Source: a virus (Duplodnaviria; Caudoviricetes). Taken from it: a DNA stretch of 30,789 bases. The position numbers were made by a program, and so were the translations under genes. Under the pieces are notes generated by a model that was not told where the DNA came from, ran no database searches, and was given only the letters and a program-made list of their open reading frames with translations. Where the stretch lies: positions 1 to 30,789 of the IMG/VR virus record IMGVR_UViG_3300005512_000215; one strand, written 5' to 3'. Below are positions 9,832 through 16,624 of the stretch, one piece after another (positions within the stretch are counted from its first letter, which is position 1; every line of letters starts with the position of its first letter).

Positions 9832-10767
9832 ATGGCTATTTCCAGAGCGCAAATGATGAAGGAACTCCTGCCGGGGCTGAACGCTCTTTTCGGTATGGAG
9901 TACGGCTCGTATGACAACGAGCATGAAGATATCTATGAGATGGAGACCTCGGACAGAGCGTTCGAGGAGGAAGTCCAGCTTTCGGGGTTTGGTACTGCTC
10001 CTGTGAAGTCTGAGGGCTCCGCTATCGCTTACGATACGGCGCAGGAAACTTTCACGGCTCGCTACAACCACGAGACGATTGCTCTTGGCTTCTCCATTAC
10101 GGAGGAGGCGATCGAGGACAATCTTTATGATTCGCTCTCGGCTCGTTACACCAAGGCCCTCGCTCGTGCTGCGGCGAACACGAAGCAGGTCAAGGCTGCG
10201 TTCCCGTTAAACAACGGGTTCACGAACGCTTACAATTCCGGTGATGGTGTTTCTCTGTTTAGTGCTGTCGGCGACGGCATTGATGGAGGCCATCCGGTTG
10301 TTAGCGGAGCGGCGAACAGCAACCGACCCGCGACGGCTTCCGATCTTAATGAGACCTCGCTTGAGCAGGCTGTCATTGATATTGGCAAGTACACGGATCA
10401 GCGTGGCCTCAAGATTGCGGCTCGCCCCGTGCGTCTCATTATTCCCTCGGAGCTTCAGTTCGTTGCTACCCGTATCCTTGATACGGAGCTTCGACCCAGC
10501 ACGGCGGATAATGATATCAACGCCCTCCGCACCAACGGTGCAATTCCGGAGGGCTACCGCATCAACCATTACCTGACGGACTCTGAGGGTGATGCTTGGT
10601 TCGTGATTACCGACGTGCCGAACGGCATGAAGGGCTTCACGCGAACCCCGATGCAGACCTCGATGGACGGTGATTTCGACACGGGTAACGTGAGGTACAA
10701 GTGCCGCGAGCGGTACAGCTTCGGCGTGAGTGACCCGCTCGGGATCTACGGTTCGCCGGGTGCGTAA
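9832..10767 (+). CDS. Major capsid protein (Mu gpT-like, HK97 fold)
   Basis: AAGGAG RBS; MAISRAQ..KELLPGLNALFG.EY, SDRAFEEEV.LSGFG, DFDTGNVRYK.RERYSFG.SDP; strongly biased codon use. Confidence 0.92.
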   Translation: MAISRAQMMKELLPGLNALFGMEYGSYDNEHEDIYEMETSDRAFEEEVQLSGFGTAPVKSEGSAIAYDTAQETFTARYNHETIALGFSITEEAIEDNLYDSLSARYTKALARAAANTKQVKAAFPLNNGFTNAYNSGDGVSLFSAVGDGIDGGHPVVSGAANSNRPATASDLNETSLEQAVIDIGKYTDQRGLKIAARPVRLIIPSELQFVATRILDTELRPSTADNDINALRTNGAIPEGYRINHYLTDSEGDAWFVITDVPNGMKGFTRTPMQTSMDGDFDTGNVRYKCRERYSFGVSDPLGIYGSPGA

Positions 10768-10868: not shown

Positions 10869-11147
10869 ATGGCTATCAAGCGCGGTAGTGAAACATTTTC
10901 CGGTTACAACAAACCGAAGAGAACTCCCAATCACCCGAAGAAGAGTCATGCTGTTCTTGCCAAGGAAGGCGACAAGATCAAGCTGATCCGTTTCGGTGAG
11001 AAGGGTGCGAAAACTGCTGGCAAGCCTAAGGCGGGTGAGTCGGACAGAATGAAGGCGAAGCGTAAGTCCTTCAAGGCCCGACATGGCAAGAACATTGCCA
11101 AGGGCAAGATGTCTGCTGCGTATTGGGCAGACAAGGTTAAATGGTAA
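10869..11147 (+). CDS. Small basic conserved phage protein (92 aa)
   Basis: GYNKPKRTP.HP.KSHAVLAK.G..IKLIRFG...RKSFKARH...SAAYWA.KVKW, a widespread phage pattern. Confidence 0.8.
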   Translation: MAIKRGSETFSGYNKPKRTPNHPKKSHAVLAKEGDKIKLIRFGEKGAKTAGKPKAGESDRMKAKRKSFKARHGKNIAKGKMSAAYWADKVKW

Positions 11148-11149
11148 AC

Positions 11150-11210
11150 CAGACCTACCAGACTTAAAAAGACAGCACGCGGACTGGTAGGCAAGTTGCG
11201 TGCAACGAGG
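11150..11210 (+). ncRNA. Pseudoknotted RNA element, candidate Mu-gpT-DE RNA motif
   Basis: CCTACCAG (11154-11161) / CTGGTAGG (11184-11191) crosses GCACGC (11175-11180) / GCGTGC (11198-11203). Downstream of a gpT-like capsid gene and abutting the next RBS. Confidence 0.5.
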
Positions 11211-11218
11211 TGATTCAA

Positions 11219-11689
11219 ATGGGTAAGACGACTTTTAGTGGGCCGGTAGTTTCTCAGCAGGGTTTCCAGGCTTCGCCTGTCGAGCTTTCTGATGCTGATG
11301 CAACTATTACTGTTGAAAGCCATAACGGAAAGGTTATTGGCGTTCCTGCCATCGGCTCTAACAGAACCTTCACTTTAACCACTCCCACTGGCGCTGGGAT
11401 TGCTTACAAGTTTATTTGTTCTGGTGCTGCGACGGAAGCTCAGAATGTAATATTAAGAACCGAAACGACTGACAATAGCGTTTTCTTTACCGGCGGCGTT
11501 TCGTTCCTTGACTCCGATGCTACTGGAGCAGCAACGGTTAGCTCTGTTTTTGCTAACGGCAGTTCCAATGAACAGCTTACGCTTGTCACGCCTGGAGTTT
11601 TCGAGATCAACTTCGTGTCTACGAGTGCAACTGAGTGGTTTGTTTGGGGCTCTGTTGTTTCCGTGACGACTCCTGCTTTTGCTGATTAA
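11219..11689 (+). CDS. Virion structural protein (head fibre/decoration, putative)
   Basis: GAGG RBS; conserved N-terminus MGKTTFSGPV.S..GF; Thr/Ser/Gly-rich beta protein ending TPAFAD. Confidence 0.65.
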   Translation: MGKTTFSGPVVSQQGFQASPVELSDADATITVESHNGKVIGVPAIGSNRTFTLTTPTGAGIAYKFICSGAATEAQNVILRTETTDNSVFFTGGVSFLDSDATGAATVSSVFANGSSNEQLTLVTPGVFEINFVSTSATEWFVWGSVVSVTTPAFAD

Positions 11690-11692
11690 TCC

Positions 11693-11938
11693 TTGTCCGA
11701 CCCCCAATGGTACAGGGATCTCACTCCCCAACGACAAGAGGCCGTAGATCAGACATTACATCTGGTCTGCGGCCTCAGTCTTTGTGCCCTCGGTGGAGCT
11801 TATCTGTCGATGGTGTCTCTTTATATCAGAGAGTTCTGGCTCCAGTGGCCTGTTGAGCGAGTGGCAGACACTAGAAAAGACATGGCGTTCTGGACTGCTG
11901 GTGCTGGAGTCTGGGAGATAGTGAGGGCTTTCAGTTGA
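11693..11938 (+). CDS. Small membrane protein (81 aa)
   Basis: TTG start; fills the gap exactly; hydrophobic helices with DQ..H...G / REF / D...D..FW..G. Confidence 0.55.
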   Translation: MSDPQWYRDLTPQRQEAVDQTLHLVCGLSLCALGGAYLSMVSLYIREFWLQWPVERVADTRKDMAFWTAGAGVWEIVRAFS

Positions 11939-12297
11939 GTGTTTATCCGGCTGGCGTAAAGCAAGCGAGAATATTGAAGTTAGGAGTTAATGACGGAAAG
12001 ACTTCTTTAATTGCAAGCCCTTGCGTCGTCAAAAGCTTATCGTTTAGACCGTTGGATGAGTTTCAGCAGCAGCCTTCTGATACTTGCATCGCACTTTATG
12101 TTTACGACGGGGATACGGTTATTATGAAATTCCCTTTTATCGGCCCTCAGTATCTATCAACAAATGTCGCTATCCTGATCCCTGCTGACGGCCTTAAGAT
12201 AAATACCTCGCTTTCTTTTGAAGTGGAAAAACTTGAAGGAACTGTAGACGCCGCAAGTCTTAGCGTCACGAGCCTAAGGGTTGCTTACCAGCGATAA
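11935..12297 (+). CDS. Small beta-rich virion protein, paralogue 1 of 5
   Basis: SPCVVKSL...YVYDG...IPADGLKINTSL...LRVAY. Confidence 0.65.
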   Translation: MSVYPAGVKQARILKLGVNDGKTSLIASPCVVKSLSFRPLDEFQQQPSDTCIALYVYDGDTVIMKFPFIGPQYLSTNVAILIPADGLKINTSLSFEVEKLEGTVDAASLSVTSLRVAYQR

Positions 12298-12302
12298 GAA
12301 TT

Positions 12303-12686
12303 ATGAAATCAACCGATGTACAAAGTGTTTTCTATAATTCTCGCGCTACCCCGACTACCAAGCACAAGCTTGTAGACATTGGGGATAGCGGTTCTTGTAG
12401 AGTTTTTTCTGTAGTTTGGTGCCCTTATCAGATAGCTTCTGGTGATAAACCTGTAATAGAGCTTTGGGAAGGTGATCCCGATAGCGGAGGCACCAAAGTC
12501 TACGAAGACGGATGCCATGTCGGGGCTGGATCAATAGGAGGTTCATCCAACAGCGATCAACCGTGGATCAACTTTGAACCATTCCCGTCCCACTACTACC
12601 TATTTAAAAATGACGTTTGGGTTGTAGGCGGAGCAAACGCTTACGGCATCAATAACGTCACAATTACTTATCAGTTGGGTGGCTAA
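12303..12686 (+). CDS. Small beta-rich virion protein, paralogue 2 of 5
   Basis: STDVQS...GSCRVFSV...IELWEG...FPSHYYLFKNDVWV...VTITY. Confidence 0.65.
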   Translation: MKSTDVQSVFYNSRATPTTKHKLVDIGDSGSCRVFSVVWCPYQIASGDKPVIELWEGDPDSGGTKVYEDGCHVGAGSIGGSSNSDQPWINFEPFPSHYYLFKNDVWVVGGANAYGINNVTITYQLGG

Positions 12687-12688
12687 AG

Positions 12689-13063
12689 ATGTCTTTAGGT
12701 TATTGCCAAGTTTCTACAGTCAGCTTAAACCCATCAGCCGATGACAGGCAGTTGATTGATTCAAGCATTCCGTCACGCATAAAACTTGTGGGTTTTAGTG
12801 TAGGTATGACTAGGGTCCTTACAGCGGGTTCAACCAATGTATTCCAAAGATTTAGACTTTTTGATGGGTCTTCTTCTGATCCGTTTTGGACTATAGTTTA
12901 TGCTAGACCAACAGCCGAAACTATTTCTTACGAGCCTTCAGTTTTTATGGTAACAGAAGACTCGTATTTGCAAATTGAAAATGGTTTAAGCTACGAAGTA
13001 ACAACTGATGGGCTGGCTAGTGAAAGCTTCCCGTTTTTAGTAAATGTGTTCTACATAGGCTAA
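12689..13063 (+). CDS. Small beta-rich virion protein, paralogue 3 of 5
   Basis: SRIKLVGF...FRLFDG...VTEDSYLQIENGL...VNVFY. Confidence 0.65.
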   Translation: MSLGYCQVSTVSLNPSADDRQLIDSSIPSRIKLVGFSVGMTRVLTAGSTNVFQRFRLFDGSSSDPFWTIVYARPTAETISYEPSVFMVTEDSYLQIENGLSYEVTTDGLASESFPFLVNVFYIG

Positions 13064-13065
13064 CC

Positions 13066-13491
13066 ATGCGTAATTACTACAAAAGCAAAAGCAAGTCTAT
13101 ATACCATGAGTCTGCACAGAGCGATGGAGCCCTAGATAGTTCTACAACTATTGCTTCTTCGGGAACTCGCGTTTGTCTCAGGAGCTTTGATCTTTCTAGT
13201 GGAGCGGCGCAGTATCAAAACGTAAACATTACCCAATCTTCCCCTTGCTACGTTTATTTTGAAAAAATGGATTCTTCAAATACTGAAGTCCTTAAGATGC
13301 CTATCACCCTTGGGGGGCTTGGTGCTTTGGTTTTTTTGGGGGGTGGCGTAGTTACACCCTCTAGCTTTATGACTATACCAGGGCCAGGGATTCTTTTTGA
13401 CGATGGAATGAGAGTAAGGATTACTATGCCAGCCAACCCTGGGACTTTGGGCCCAATCTTTGCGCTAGTCAATGTGGTGTACTCAATATGA
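13066..13491 (+). CDS. Small beta-rich virion protein, paralogue 4 of 5
   Basis: TRVCLRSF...IPGPGILFDDGMRV...VNVVY. Confidence 0.65.
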   Translation: MRNYYKSKSKSIYHESAQSDGALDSSTTIASSGTRVCLRSFDLSSGAAQYQNVNITQSSPCYVYFEKMDSSNTEVLKMPITLGGLGALVFLGGGVVTPSSFMTIPGPGILFDDGMRVRITMPANPGTLGPIFALVNVVYSI

Positions 13492-13895
13492 CAGAAGATT
13501 ATACAAATATCTGGTCAAGCACAGACCCATACAACGATGGCAGCGCCTCCGGTACTCAGATAATTAGTGGGCGCGTTAGGGTTCATGCGTTTTGGGTTGT
13601 CAACGGTGGGTCAAATACATCCGGAGACAACGGCCATACACTTTCAAGACCTATGGCTTTGAGGCCAAGTTCAGGTGGTACTGAAATTTACAAGGTTGCT
13701 TTTCCTAACTCTAGCCGATTGGCTCAGTCAGCGGCTAGGTCTTTTTTCCCGTACCAGCATAGATTTGGTGGCAACGGTATTCTATTTGAAAATGGAGTTT
13801 GGTTTTCTGTAGACGCAAACGACCAGACTGGATCATCGACGGTAAGCCCATCTTCTTTTGTTGCAGTTCTCTATACAGGCGGGGCAAACACTTAA
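13488..13895 (+). CDS. Small beta-rich virion protein, paralogue 5 of 5
   Basis: GRVRVHAF...FGGNGILFENGVWF...VAVLY. Confidence 0.65.
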   Translation: MTEDYTNIWSSTDPYNDGSASGTQIISGRVRVHAFWVVNGGSNTSGDNGHTLSRPMALRPSSGGTEIYKVAFPNSSRLAQSAARSFFPYQHRFGGNGILFENGVWFSVDANDQTGSSTVSPSSFVAVLYTGGANT

Positions 13896-14179
13896 TGACT
13901 CATGTAACCCCGACGACTTTCTGGGCCTCCCTTGGCATCGTAGCTTCTGCCATTGGGGGCCTTTTTACTATGCAGATGTCACATGCCGGGGAAAACGGTC
14001 ATAGCTCTATGGCAGATCAGGCCGAAGTGGCTCAGGTAAAAATCAAGATTGAGCGCATTGAGACTGAGGTAAAGCACAACCGAGAGTTGCTAGGGGATCT
14101 CAAGGTTGAGCTAAGGGATCTCCGAGCAAAGCAGGCGGAGAACAGCGAAGAGATATTGGAGGCCATCCGTGGCAACTAG
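13895..14179 (+). CDS. Single-TM plus coiled-coil protein (possibly holin-like), 94 aa
   Basis: TAATG overlap places the start at 13895. FWASLGIVASAIGGLF helix followed by a heptad-rich segment. Confidence 0.55.
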   Translation: MTHVTPTTFWASLGIVASAIGGLFTMQMSHAGENGHSSMADQAEVAQVKIKIERIETEVKHNRELLGDLKVELRDLRAKQAENSEEILEAIRGN

Positions 14180-14870
14180 CGGCGCAGTATCGTTTTCACC
14201 CGATGTCGGTGAATTAGTGGAAGAAGCTTACGAGCGTGCTGGCCTCCAGATGGTCTCTGGGTATGATCTCCGCACAGCCAGGAGAAGCATTGATCTCATG
14301 CTCATGGAGTGGGCCAACAGAGGCATAAACCTCTGGTGCGTGAGCGAAGATGAAATCACGATGGTTGATGGTCAGGGTGCTTACACAGCCATTAACGCGA
14401 CCCCGAACGTGGCTGTCTCGATACTGGAAGCCGTGCTCAGAACTGATGATGGGGATGTGAACAATCAGTCTGATTATGACTTGGCTAGAATTTCCAGAAA
14501 CACATTCATGAGCATCCCCTCCAAGCTGTCTAAGGGGAGGCCGACTCAGATCTACGTCGATCGCCAGCAGGGCGAGATCAAGATGAACCTGTGGCCCGTT
14601 CCCAACGACGCCACTCAGAAGCTCGTCTATACCTACATCCGTCGCATGGAAGACTCTGGTCCCGGCGGCACTTATGACCCGGATGTGCCTGATAGATTTT
14701 GGCCCGCGCTAGTGGCCGGTCTTGCTTACAACATTGCCCTCAAGAAGCCTGAGGCTGGGCAGCGAATCCAAATGCTCAAGCAGGTATATGACGAGCAGTT
14801 CCAGTACGCAGCAGAAGAGGACAGAGAGAAGGCCCCCTTCAGGCTCTACCCCGGAGGCTACAGCTACTAA
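14169..14870 (+). CDS. Head-tail connector/adaptor protein (putative)
   Basis: GGAGG RBS with GTG start; MATSG..F..D..E.VEEAYER.G...SGYDLRTARRS, EWANRG.NLW, GRPTQ.Y, LWPVP, P.RF.PALVAGLAY. Confidence 0.7.
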   Translation: MATSGAVSFSPDVGELVEEAYERAGLQMVSGYDLRTARRSIDLMLMEWANRGINLWCVSEDEITMVDGQGAYTAINATPNVAVSILEAVLRTDDGDVNNQSDYDLARISRNTFMSIPSKLSKGRPTQIYVDRQQGEIKMNLWPVPNDATQKLVYTYIRRMEDSGPGGTYDPDVPDRFWPALVAGLAYNIALKKPEAGQRIQMLKQVYDEQFQYAAEEDREKAPFRLYPGGYSY

Positions 14871-15913: not shown

Positions 15914-16624
15914 TTGGCAGCCTTCACTCTTACAACACTGAGCGCAGCCATAGATGAATGGCTGGAAAATGATTTCTGGGGAGACGATTCCCAGGATCAG
16001 AAGAACAACATCATCGTGTTGGCGGAGGAAAAGATCAACTCGACTGTTAGCATTGCGAGTTTTAACACAAAGGAAGTCTCTGGCTCTGTTACATCGGGGA
16101 ATGGAAGCTTTGAGGTGTCCTCTTCCGATGTGATCGCCAGCCCGCTAACGCCGTTGTATCTGAGGGTGAGAACTGGGGATGGCTCCACTCCTTGGAGGTA
16201 TTTACTCTTAAAGGATTACAACTTCCTTTATGAGTATGCCCCGACGGAAAACACCACCGGATACCCCAAGTATTATTCTTTCTATAACAATACCGACAGT
16301 TCCAATGCTCCGACTGTAAACTTCGCCCCTCACGCAAATGCGACGTATAATTATGAGTTCAACTACTACTTTGAACCTACGTCCCTCACGGCAGTCCCTA
16401 CTGATAACACCACTTGGCTCAGCACCCATGCCAAGAACGCTCTTTTGTATGGATGTCTTGTTCAAGCATACATCTTCATGAAGGGCGATCCGAATTTGAT
16501 TCAAACATACGAAATGAAATTTATGGAAGCTCTCAAAGCCCTTGTTGTGATGCAGGGCGGAACCTTCCGAGACACTTCTTATAATGATTCGGATAACGCT
16601 CCGAACGTAATGGCGGCTCAGTAA
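15914..16624 (+). CDS. Tail tubular/adaptor protein (putative)
   Basis: TTG start; I..W.EN, I.LAEE.I, L..KD.NFL.EY.P...TG.PKYY, TTWLS..A.NALLYG.LV.AY.FMKG. Confidence 0.7.
   Translation: MAAFTLTTLSAAIDEWLENDFWGDDSQDQKNNIIVLAEEKINSTVSIASFNTKEVSGSVTSGNGSFEVSSSDVIASPLTPLYLRVRTGDGSTPWRYLLLKDYNFLYEYAPTENTTGYPKYYSFYNNTDSSNAPTVNFAPHANATYNYEFNYYFEPTSLTAVPTDNTTWLSTHAKNALLYGCLVQAYIFMKGDPNLIQTYEMKFMEALKALVVMQGGTFRDTSYNDSDNAPNVMAAQ

Follow-up and report, generated by a model that had tools for sequence, protein, structure and literature searches.

A cassette of five small genes in an HTVC023P-type phage fragment

We analysed a cassette of five consecutive small open reading frames (ORFs), designated p1 to p5, in a 30,789-nucleotide stretch of DNA from a tailed virus (IMG/VR record IMGVR_UViG_3300005512_000215). 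This whole stretch is referred to as the window; the record represents a linear virus and is ~54% complete. As described in the initial annotation, the ORFs are tightly coupled and encode proteins of 120–141 amino acids (aa):

11935..12297, plus strand: p1, cassette subunit 1; 120 aa, TTG start overlapping the upstream stop codon
12303..12686, plus strand: p2, cassette subunit 2; 127 aa, R.FS strand and TYQ.G end
12689..13063, plus strand: p3, cassette subunit 3; 124 aa, DG turn and DSY..I..GL motif
13066..13491, plus strand: p4, cassette subunit 4; 141 aa, IPG.G.LF.DG motif, most similar to the single-copy family described below
13488..13895, plus strand: p5, cassette subunit 5; 135 aa, GR strand, GGNGILF motif and YTGG.N end

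The spacings p1-p2, p2-p3, p3-p4 and p4-p5 are 5, 2, 2 and -4 nucleotides (nt), respectively. Protein p1 is marked by a YP.G N-terminus, a DG turn and a P..G.R motif. Inspection revealed no signal-peptide-like or long hydrophobic stretch in p1-p5. The presumed lack of an evident DNA repeat was confirmed; the best match, 40 nt at 73% identity, links the 'LF.N.VW' motif of p2 to that of p5. The block had also been thought to be richer in AT than the head genes. Indeed, its GC content (0.441) lies below that of the window as a whole (0.498) and that of the capsid gene (0.562). This bias is not specific, because the tail gene at 16624 has a similar value (0.456). Diversity-generating retroelements are recognized by near-identical template and variable repeats and by a reverse transcriptase gene. 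No such repeat pair was found within positions 11000-14300 and no reverse transcriptase among the 29 ORFs scanned in this incomplete record; an origin from DNA repeats or a retroelement was rejected, as the scanned range contains no long repeat.

The five proteins are paralogues of a large single-copy family

Single-sequence BLASTP among p1-p5 yielded nothing significant (best E 0.026), and profiles were therefore needed to show paralogy. A search profile was derived from relatives (53 small proteins, with the window and its closest relative left out) and compared with 6204 ORFs. In this search, p5 (E 5e-4), p4 (0.016) and p1 (0.29) ranked directly under the family itself. When shallow profiles of the five positions were aligned to the single-copy family, each of them scored above 40 of 40 shuffles of its own columns. 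Deep profiles (23 sequences per position, 148 for the single-copy family) aligned to the family with hhalign probabilities of 96.5% (p1), 95.6% (p2), 94.4% (p3), 95.7% (p4) and 96.7% (p5). Among the five, all-against-all alignment gave 88-97% for nine of ten pairs, in agreement with the proposal of five highly diverged paralogues of one protein; the weak pair is p1-p5 (21-33%).

By profile comparison, the five ORFs are paralogues within one large unnamed family, PHROG 28102, to which 22 of 29 family members were assigned; single window sequences did not match phrog_28102 directly. The family comprises 1153 clusters at 50% identity and includes HTVC027P gp63, HTVC023P gp42 and WJZ48057.1 of DSL-LC04. 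It shares with p1-p5 the profile (94-97%), the predicted fold and the gene slot between the capsid and head-tail adaptor genes. Its members differ in being ~90-100 aa long, with short loops, usually present in one copy and annotated as hypothetical. The locus surveys described below confirm the single shorter gene that had been suggested for related phages. Neither Pfam nor PHROGs assigned p1-p5 to a named family, and in Pfam the single-copy family had no named match either. Sequence searches of the PDB returned chance matches only, close matches in BFVD were all unnamed or uncharacterised, and ESM Atlas matches of p5 were confined to 'hypothetical protein' clusters.

In a head of T=7 geometry, capsid and vertex subunits stand at 415:55. 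The single-copy homologue HTVC027P_gp63 is listed as a late gene in Table S3 of PMC12753301, and the capsid:gp63 ratio of late transcripts derived from this source was 7.9 at the last time point, close to that geometry. As a clue to stoichiometry this ratio was given no weight, because the two earlier time points give 5.4 and 3.2.

Five copies in fixed order prevail in the clade of the window

Based on capsid similarity and gene order, we place the window as a fragment of an HTVC023P-type podophage. It encodes terminase, an SU10-type portal protein, GroES, the capsid protein, two SU10-type adaptors as well as tail and ejection genes, and its capsid protein is 61-64% identical to those of the Pelagibacter phages HTVC023P and HTVC027P and 56-67% identical to those of CRP-901, DSL-LC04 and Pag-Yong1. 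A search of bacterial genomes provided no host clue for the window phage. The genes delimiting the interval that we surveyed are:

9832..10767, plus strand: major capsid protein (Phage_capsid_4, phrog_371), presumed docking partner of the cassette
14169..14870, plus strand: SU10-type head-tail adaptor

A survey based on the capsid gene covered 85 loci (80 contigs and 5 isolates), 34 of which span the interval from capsid to adaptor. One copy was present in 22 of these intervals, two copies in one and five in one, while none was detected in 10. Loci found by motif (n=120, of which 40 held short flanks only) carried one copy in 111 cases, two in one, and no detected copy in 8. So that the choice of loci would not depend on the cassette, we used the 94-aa gene downstream of it as query, an unbiased marker of the clade. 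This retrieved 56 loci, of which 16 were cut off upstream and set aside. The remaining 40 complete loci contained five copies in 33 cases, ten in 3, seven in 1, two in 2 and none in 1. Included in the 33 are one locus with p5 split by a frameshift and three with a 300-aa first gene. Merging arrays with identical C-termini reduced the 40 to 30 distinct loci: five copies in 25 (one identical to the window), ten in 1, seven in 1, two in 2 and none in 1. Complete arrays of three, four or six copies were absent from these 30 loci. The same five orthologues are routine in this clade of uncultured aquatic phages, and no known roles were found for them.

The ten-copy array consists of p1-p5 followed by p1-p5 and is present in three assemblies. 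Its first block could be assigned one-to-one to p1-p5 (98, 87, 95, 21 and 99%, using profiles that exclude this block), and the two blocks represent different alleles. The array lies at L105:3365-7423 and is the same in L091, L124, L150 and L151; the type of its first block occurs alone in L113. In the seven-copy array, a p3-like and a p4-like gene precede the full five. A further, truncated locus holds at least six copies, namely a remnant in addition to five; the first member of this array is similar to the single-copy family. The frameshift in p5 (L099:4394-4781) is either a real lesion or an assembly error. The ~300-aa first genes (L132:1002-1910, L137:1207-2157, L134:2516-3460) combine a 200-aa N-terminal part with a family-like C-terminal domain; the two that were scanned had no Pfam or PHROG match.

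The cassette is inherited and apparently exchanged as a block

In a quick tree of 109 proteins and 132 columns, in which many forks are unresolved, sequences grouped by position and not by genome, and the same three allele types recurred inside each position. The allele type was uniform across the five positions in 21 of 23 arrays and ambiguous in the other 2, and no chimera was present among the 21 assignable arrays. Proteins of distant arrays (L093, L162, L132, L137) partly joined p1 and p3 (support 83-87). The five-copy arrays likely go back to a single old expansion. Position-specific lineages and motifs persist although median identity between orthologues of a position is 24-30%. The corresponding medians are 78% (capsid protein), 80% (upstream gene), 56% (downstream gene) and 53% (adaptor).

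Identities at the five positions co-vary (Spearman 0.49-0.70), whereas their correlation with the capsid gene is -0.20 to -0.02. Two loci illustrate this decoupling: identity is 90% for the capsid protein and 16-29% for the cassette in L159, and 74% and 78-94%, respectively, in L089. The capsid identity of 98% for L110 rests on a fragment; it was kept in the correlation and is not used as an example. In blastn comparisons with 13 relatives, one was identical, 3 carried the cassette at 85-87% identity, and 9 lost similarity across the cassette except for short patches. The borders of this loss and the flanking ORFs are:

11693..11938, plus strand: 81-aa hydrophobic ORF, left flank; 56-96% identity in 16 of 22 other arrays where found
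11885..11964, no strand: left border; DNA similarity ends here in 8 of 9 relatives with another allele, at the end of the 81-aa ORF and the first p1 codons
13764..13895, no strand: right border; DNA similarity resumes here in the same 9 relatives, at the 3' end of p5
13895..14179, plus strand: 94-aa ORF, right flank and clade marker; hydrophobic N-terminus followed by a coiled-coil-like part, by inspection

The position lineages are kept, and between conserved DNA borders the block varies without tracking the capsid gene; the cassette is therefore a fixed five-part unit, apparently exchanged whole, and not a loose repertoire. In three of four runs, parts of the cassette are covered by contigs of relatives; in the fourth there is almost no coverage, a gap that proves nothing.

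Six close pairs of arrays were used to address selection on the five genes. The proportion of nonsynonymous differences (pN) was below that of synonymous differences (pS) in 30 of 30 gene-pair comparisons, indicating that all five genes are maintained. The ratio of the corresponding rates (dN/dS) was 0.02-0.20 for core and 0.15-0.37 for variable columns, with one pair being saturated. Average dN/dS did not exceed 1 in these pairs and thus gave no sign of diversifying selection on the loops, which are less constrained than the core. The initial idea that the loops vary freely is contradicted: purifying selection acts on them, and at each position a distinct signature is retained.

The predicted fold is a jelly roll

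Fold models were obtained for p5 and the single-copy family; the fold of p1-p4 is deduced from the profiles. The single-copy family was predicted as an all-beta jelly roll (predicted local distance difference test score, pLDDT, 94; predicted template modelling score, pTM, 0.82) and p5 as a single jelly roll (pLDDT 84, pTM 0.81), and both models share fold neighbours. Together with the profiles, the tree and the lower dN/dS of core as compared to variable columns, these models support the suggestion of an ancient gene expansion on a beta-sandwich scaffold whose loops are more variable.

Foldseek retrieved no match in the PDB at E <= 0.001. Among the top 18 VIA rows for the single-copy model (Z 6.4-6.9), 16 are nucleoplasmin cores, which are pentamers according to one entry title. 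The other two are chains of the HFTV1 turret (8qpg_TD; Z 6.6, root mean square deviation (rmsd) 3.0, 77 residues aligned) and of HHIV-2 (6h82_b; Z 6.6, rmsd 2.9, 84 aligned). In a wide search with the same model, dopamine beta-hydroxylase ranked first (Z 7.0); the matches further included many carbohydrate-binding modules along with SPV1, polyomavirus VP1, the STIV turret, XepA, YomS and a metagenomic pentameric phage protein. XepA and YomS appear among the fold matches at Z 5.3-5.8. The list for p5 contains the Pam1 cement protein, the trimeric cement protein of KHP40 and TNF/C1q trimers among rows at Z 5.2-6.2. In these models, the fold class is clearly that of a jelly roll, and the oligomeric state is not given by the fold matches.

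The slot also accommodates putative surface-type proteins

Both flanks of the cassette (11693-11938 and 13895-14179) are small hydrophobic ORFs that are far more conserved than the cassette between them; the downstream one has a weak spanin-like match (E 0.034). In one relative (L149:3594-6413), both flanking genes are retained and a single 939-aa protein stands in place of the entire cassette. By eye it has a signal-peptide-like start, and a right-handed beta-helix is predicted, albeit by a model of low confidence (Atlas score 0.91, TM under 0.5). We considered that this protein might represent five fused subunits; this was rejected, as residues 22-500 gave no profile match and the remainder is beta-helix-like.

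In some of the single copies, a loop contains an inserted beta-barrel of the endosialidase type (E 4e-5, which is below the curated cut-off of Pfam). Single or double copies of 160-200 aa with a loop insert occur at L012:2491-3009 (endosialidase-type), L007:9816-10809, L037:3019-4038 and in L209, and the double-copy loci outside the clade are of this long form. In the 10 relatives without a detected copy, the slot mostly holds another small protein family or long fibre-like genes. A different family of 133-137 aa occupies it in 5 of these 10 (L002:1865-2272, L005:4322-4723, L031:7692-8096, L066:5838-6242 and L086:7512-7925, the latter being CRP-901 gp55) and is possibly a functional alternative. 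Overall, the slot looks like a site for exchangeable surface modules.

Neighbouring genes

A further gene lies between the capsid gene and the left flank:

11219..11689, plus strand: gene of 156 aa in the slot that follows the capsid gene; does not match p1-p5 over its full length, other types in relatives

It was ruled out as a sixth paralogue, its best profile match being 18% over 22 columns. A short N-terminal stretch is conserved, but close relatives have exchanged the body for one of several dissimilar types (L089 with two, L097, L098, L105, L110), making it a second variable slot. A small Lys-rich ORF at 10869-11147 corresponds to phrog_7595, and relatives have variable runs of basic ORFs after the capsid gene. 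The adaptor at 14169-14870 exists in two types within the clade, ~80% or ~50% identical to that of the window, independently of the cassette type. A sequence search of the PDB found no solved relative of the window capsid protein.

Discussion

That the members of this family are virion proteins is suggested by where the gene lies, by the predicted fold and by a homologue being transcribed late. In our judgement there is an even chance that p1-p5 form an ordered hetero-pentamer on the five-fold vertices of the capsid, with variable outward loops for host contact. Five subunits for a five-fold vertex, offered as a speculation in the initial annotation, is thereby the reading that we prefer. According to this model, p1-p5 would be five unlike subunits of one ring capping the vertices of the head, and relatives with a single gene would build the same ring from five identical subunits. 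After the old expansion to five, each copy would have evolved interfaces fitted to its two neighbours, and because of such interfaces number, order and position motifs could persist while identity fell to about 25%. The longer variable loops would point outward, either as an asymmetric surface that touches the host envelope first or as a socket that holds one fibre. The co-adapted block would be exchanged as a whole by recombination in the conserved flanks, much like receptor-binding modules.

Several observations argue for this model. Five or ten copies dominate, the order is fixed, the motifs are position-specific and exchange is block-wise, which is how an obligate five-part complex would behave. 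As one gene suffices in most relatives, the simplest change would be from a homopentamer to an ordered heteropentamer. The pentameric folds leading the match list of the single-copy model were counted in favour of a pentamer, and by analogy to RcGTA Rcc01079 the natural site for a pentamer on a tailed phage head would be the capsid penton. The surface-type cargo of the slot (the beta-barrel inserts and the predicted beta-helix of L149) was likewise counted in favour of the model, as were the predicted jelly roll, the purifying selection on all five genes, their decoupling from the capsid gene, the gene position, the late transcription of gp63 and the precedents discussed below. With rather less assurance, we propose that a five-fold symmetric cap has been turned into a fully asymmetric, position-fixed ring that serves as a host-recognition cassette swapped as a whole, sometimes present as two alleles that would give two kinds of cap.

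Other observations weigh against this model. Exceptions to the number five exist, with seven (L129), two (L130, L131), none (L149) or at least six (L163) copies; p5 is split in L099, and L132, L134, L136 and L137 have the 300-aa first gene. The five-copy arrays probably descend from one expansion, so that the number five has not been repeated independently. The linkage of the five could follow simply from the absence of DNA homology within the block. The loops of the six close pairs showed no excess amino-acid change. No structural match reached a Z of 8, middling Z values are common, and the match lists of the models mix symmetries (KHP40 trimeric cement, Pam1 cement, TNF/C1q trimers, HFTV1 turret). 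Finally, the signal-peptide-like start of the L149 protein and the hydrophobic upstream flank gene would fit a module of the cell envelope.

An alternative that we consider unlikely is that p1-p5 contribute separate parts to a virion structure other than a vertex pentamer, such as decoration subunits each suited to a different quasi-equivalent capsid site, parts of a neck or of a portal-vertex collar, or mixed trimers or hexamers. A fixed number and order would suit any obligate multi-part assembly, and trimeric and hexamer-associated jelly-roll decorations match at similar Z (7dou, 7eel_H, 8qpg_TD). However, with one gene being enough in 22 of 34 intervals, five roles would have to arise from one, and the passage from one to five is simplest as that from a homo- to a hetero-pentamer, with pentameric folds leading the single-copy matches.

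Still less probable is a repertoire of independent surface-binding modules, homo-oligomeric or randomly mixed, that widens the host range additively, one of the possibilities raised in the initial annotation. High divergence, variable loops and loci with 2, 7 or 10 copies are compatible with it, and the ten-copy phage with two adjacent alleles is repertoire-like at the level of the whole block. It is weakened by the same five ordered orthologues in relatives, their near-fixed number with no complete array of three, four or six, the lineages and motifs kept at about 25% identity, the duplication of all five in order, and the exchange of the whole block without chimeras among the assignable arrays.

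Least probable is a late non-virion complex acting at the host envelope or in assembly or lysis, a role proposed for the pentameric jelly rolls XepA and YomS, or a nucleoplasmin-like chaperone: it would agree with XepA and YomS among the fold matches (Z 5.3-5.8), with XepA being reported absent from mature phage (PMC6834076), with the hydrophobic flanking ORFs including the weakly spanin-like one (E 0.034) and with the L149 start, but p1-p5 lack signal-peptide-like or long hydrophobic stretches by inspection, the family lies within the head gene block of relatives and some single copies carry a tail-spike-type barrel in a loop.

Known systems provide partial precedents for an ordered vertex ring. 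Rcc01079 of the gene transfer agent RcGTA is a small jelly-roll base of the head spike, which forms a pentamer on capsid pentons, is attached through its N-termini and carries one fibre that binds the host capsule (PMC7296036). A small jelly roll with this role on an HK97-fold head is what we propose for the cassette; Rcc01079 differs in being a homopentamer from one gene. Rcc01079 appeared in no sequence or structure match list that we obtained, an absence that does not exclude kinship, and no partner fibre gene adjoining the cassette was identified. If our model holds, the cassette would act like such a penton-sitting spike base.

The penton base of the tectivirus PR772 is a heteropentamer of three P5 N-terminal domains and two P31 (PMC6750898). 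Such a vertex ring of related subunits, an asymmetric platform for host recognition, is what we envisage for the cassette. PR772 differs in using two gene products, in being tail-less and membrane-containing, and in having the penton within the shell and not as a cap; the sections of that report that were consulted describe no exchangeable cassette. The window does not come from a tail-less tectivirus, as its genes include those for a portal protein, a terminase, adaptors of the SU10 type and a capsid protein of the Phage_capsid_4 family.

Other small beta-sandwich rings known from tailed viruses are the HFTV1 turret base gp30, a hexamer on hexons (bioRxiv 2024.12.09.627619), and XepA of PBSX and YomS of SPbeta, both pentameric jelly rolls (PMC6834076). 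These are homo-oligomers, and the Z values of the matched HFTV1 turret chain 8qpg_TD, XepA and YomS (5.3-6.6) are too low to show kinship. The main text of PMC9599517 on HTVC023P-type genomes does not mention tandem, island or duplication. The viral single amplified genome (vSAG) 37-F6 has a hypervariable island of unknown protein (PMC5490008). We found no description of the five-gene cassette in a literature search that left most subscription journals and supplements outside.

Taken together, our analysis provides a predicted fold and a testable role for a family of >1,100 protein clusters, and it directs attention to a possible module for host contact that is carried on the head and lies apart from the tail genes. 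The ring, if real, would represent a natural case of a homo-oligomer turned into a fully ordered hetero-oligomer, with one-, two-, five- and ten-gene states coexisting. Because these gene states coexist and cultured single-copy isolates exist, how and why identical rings become hetero-rings would be testable in a virus.

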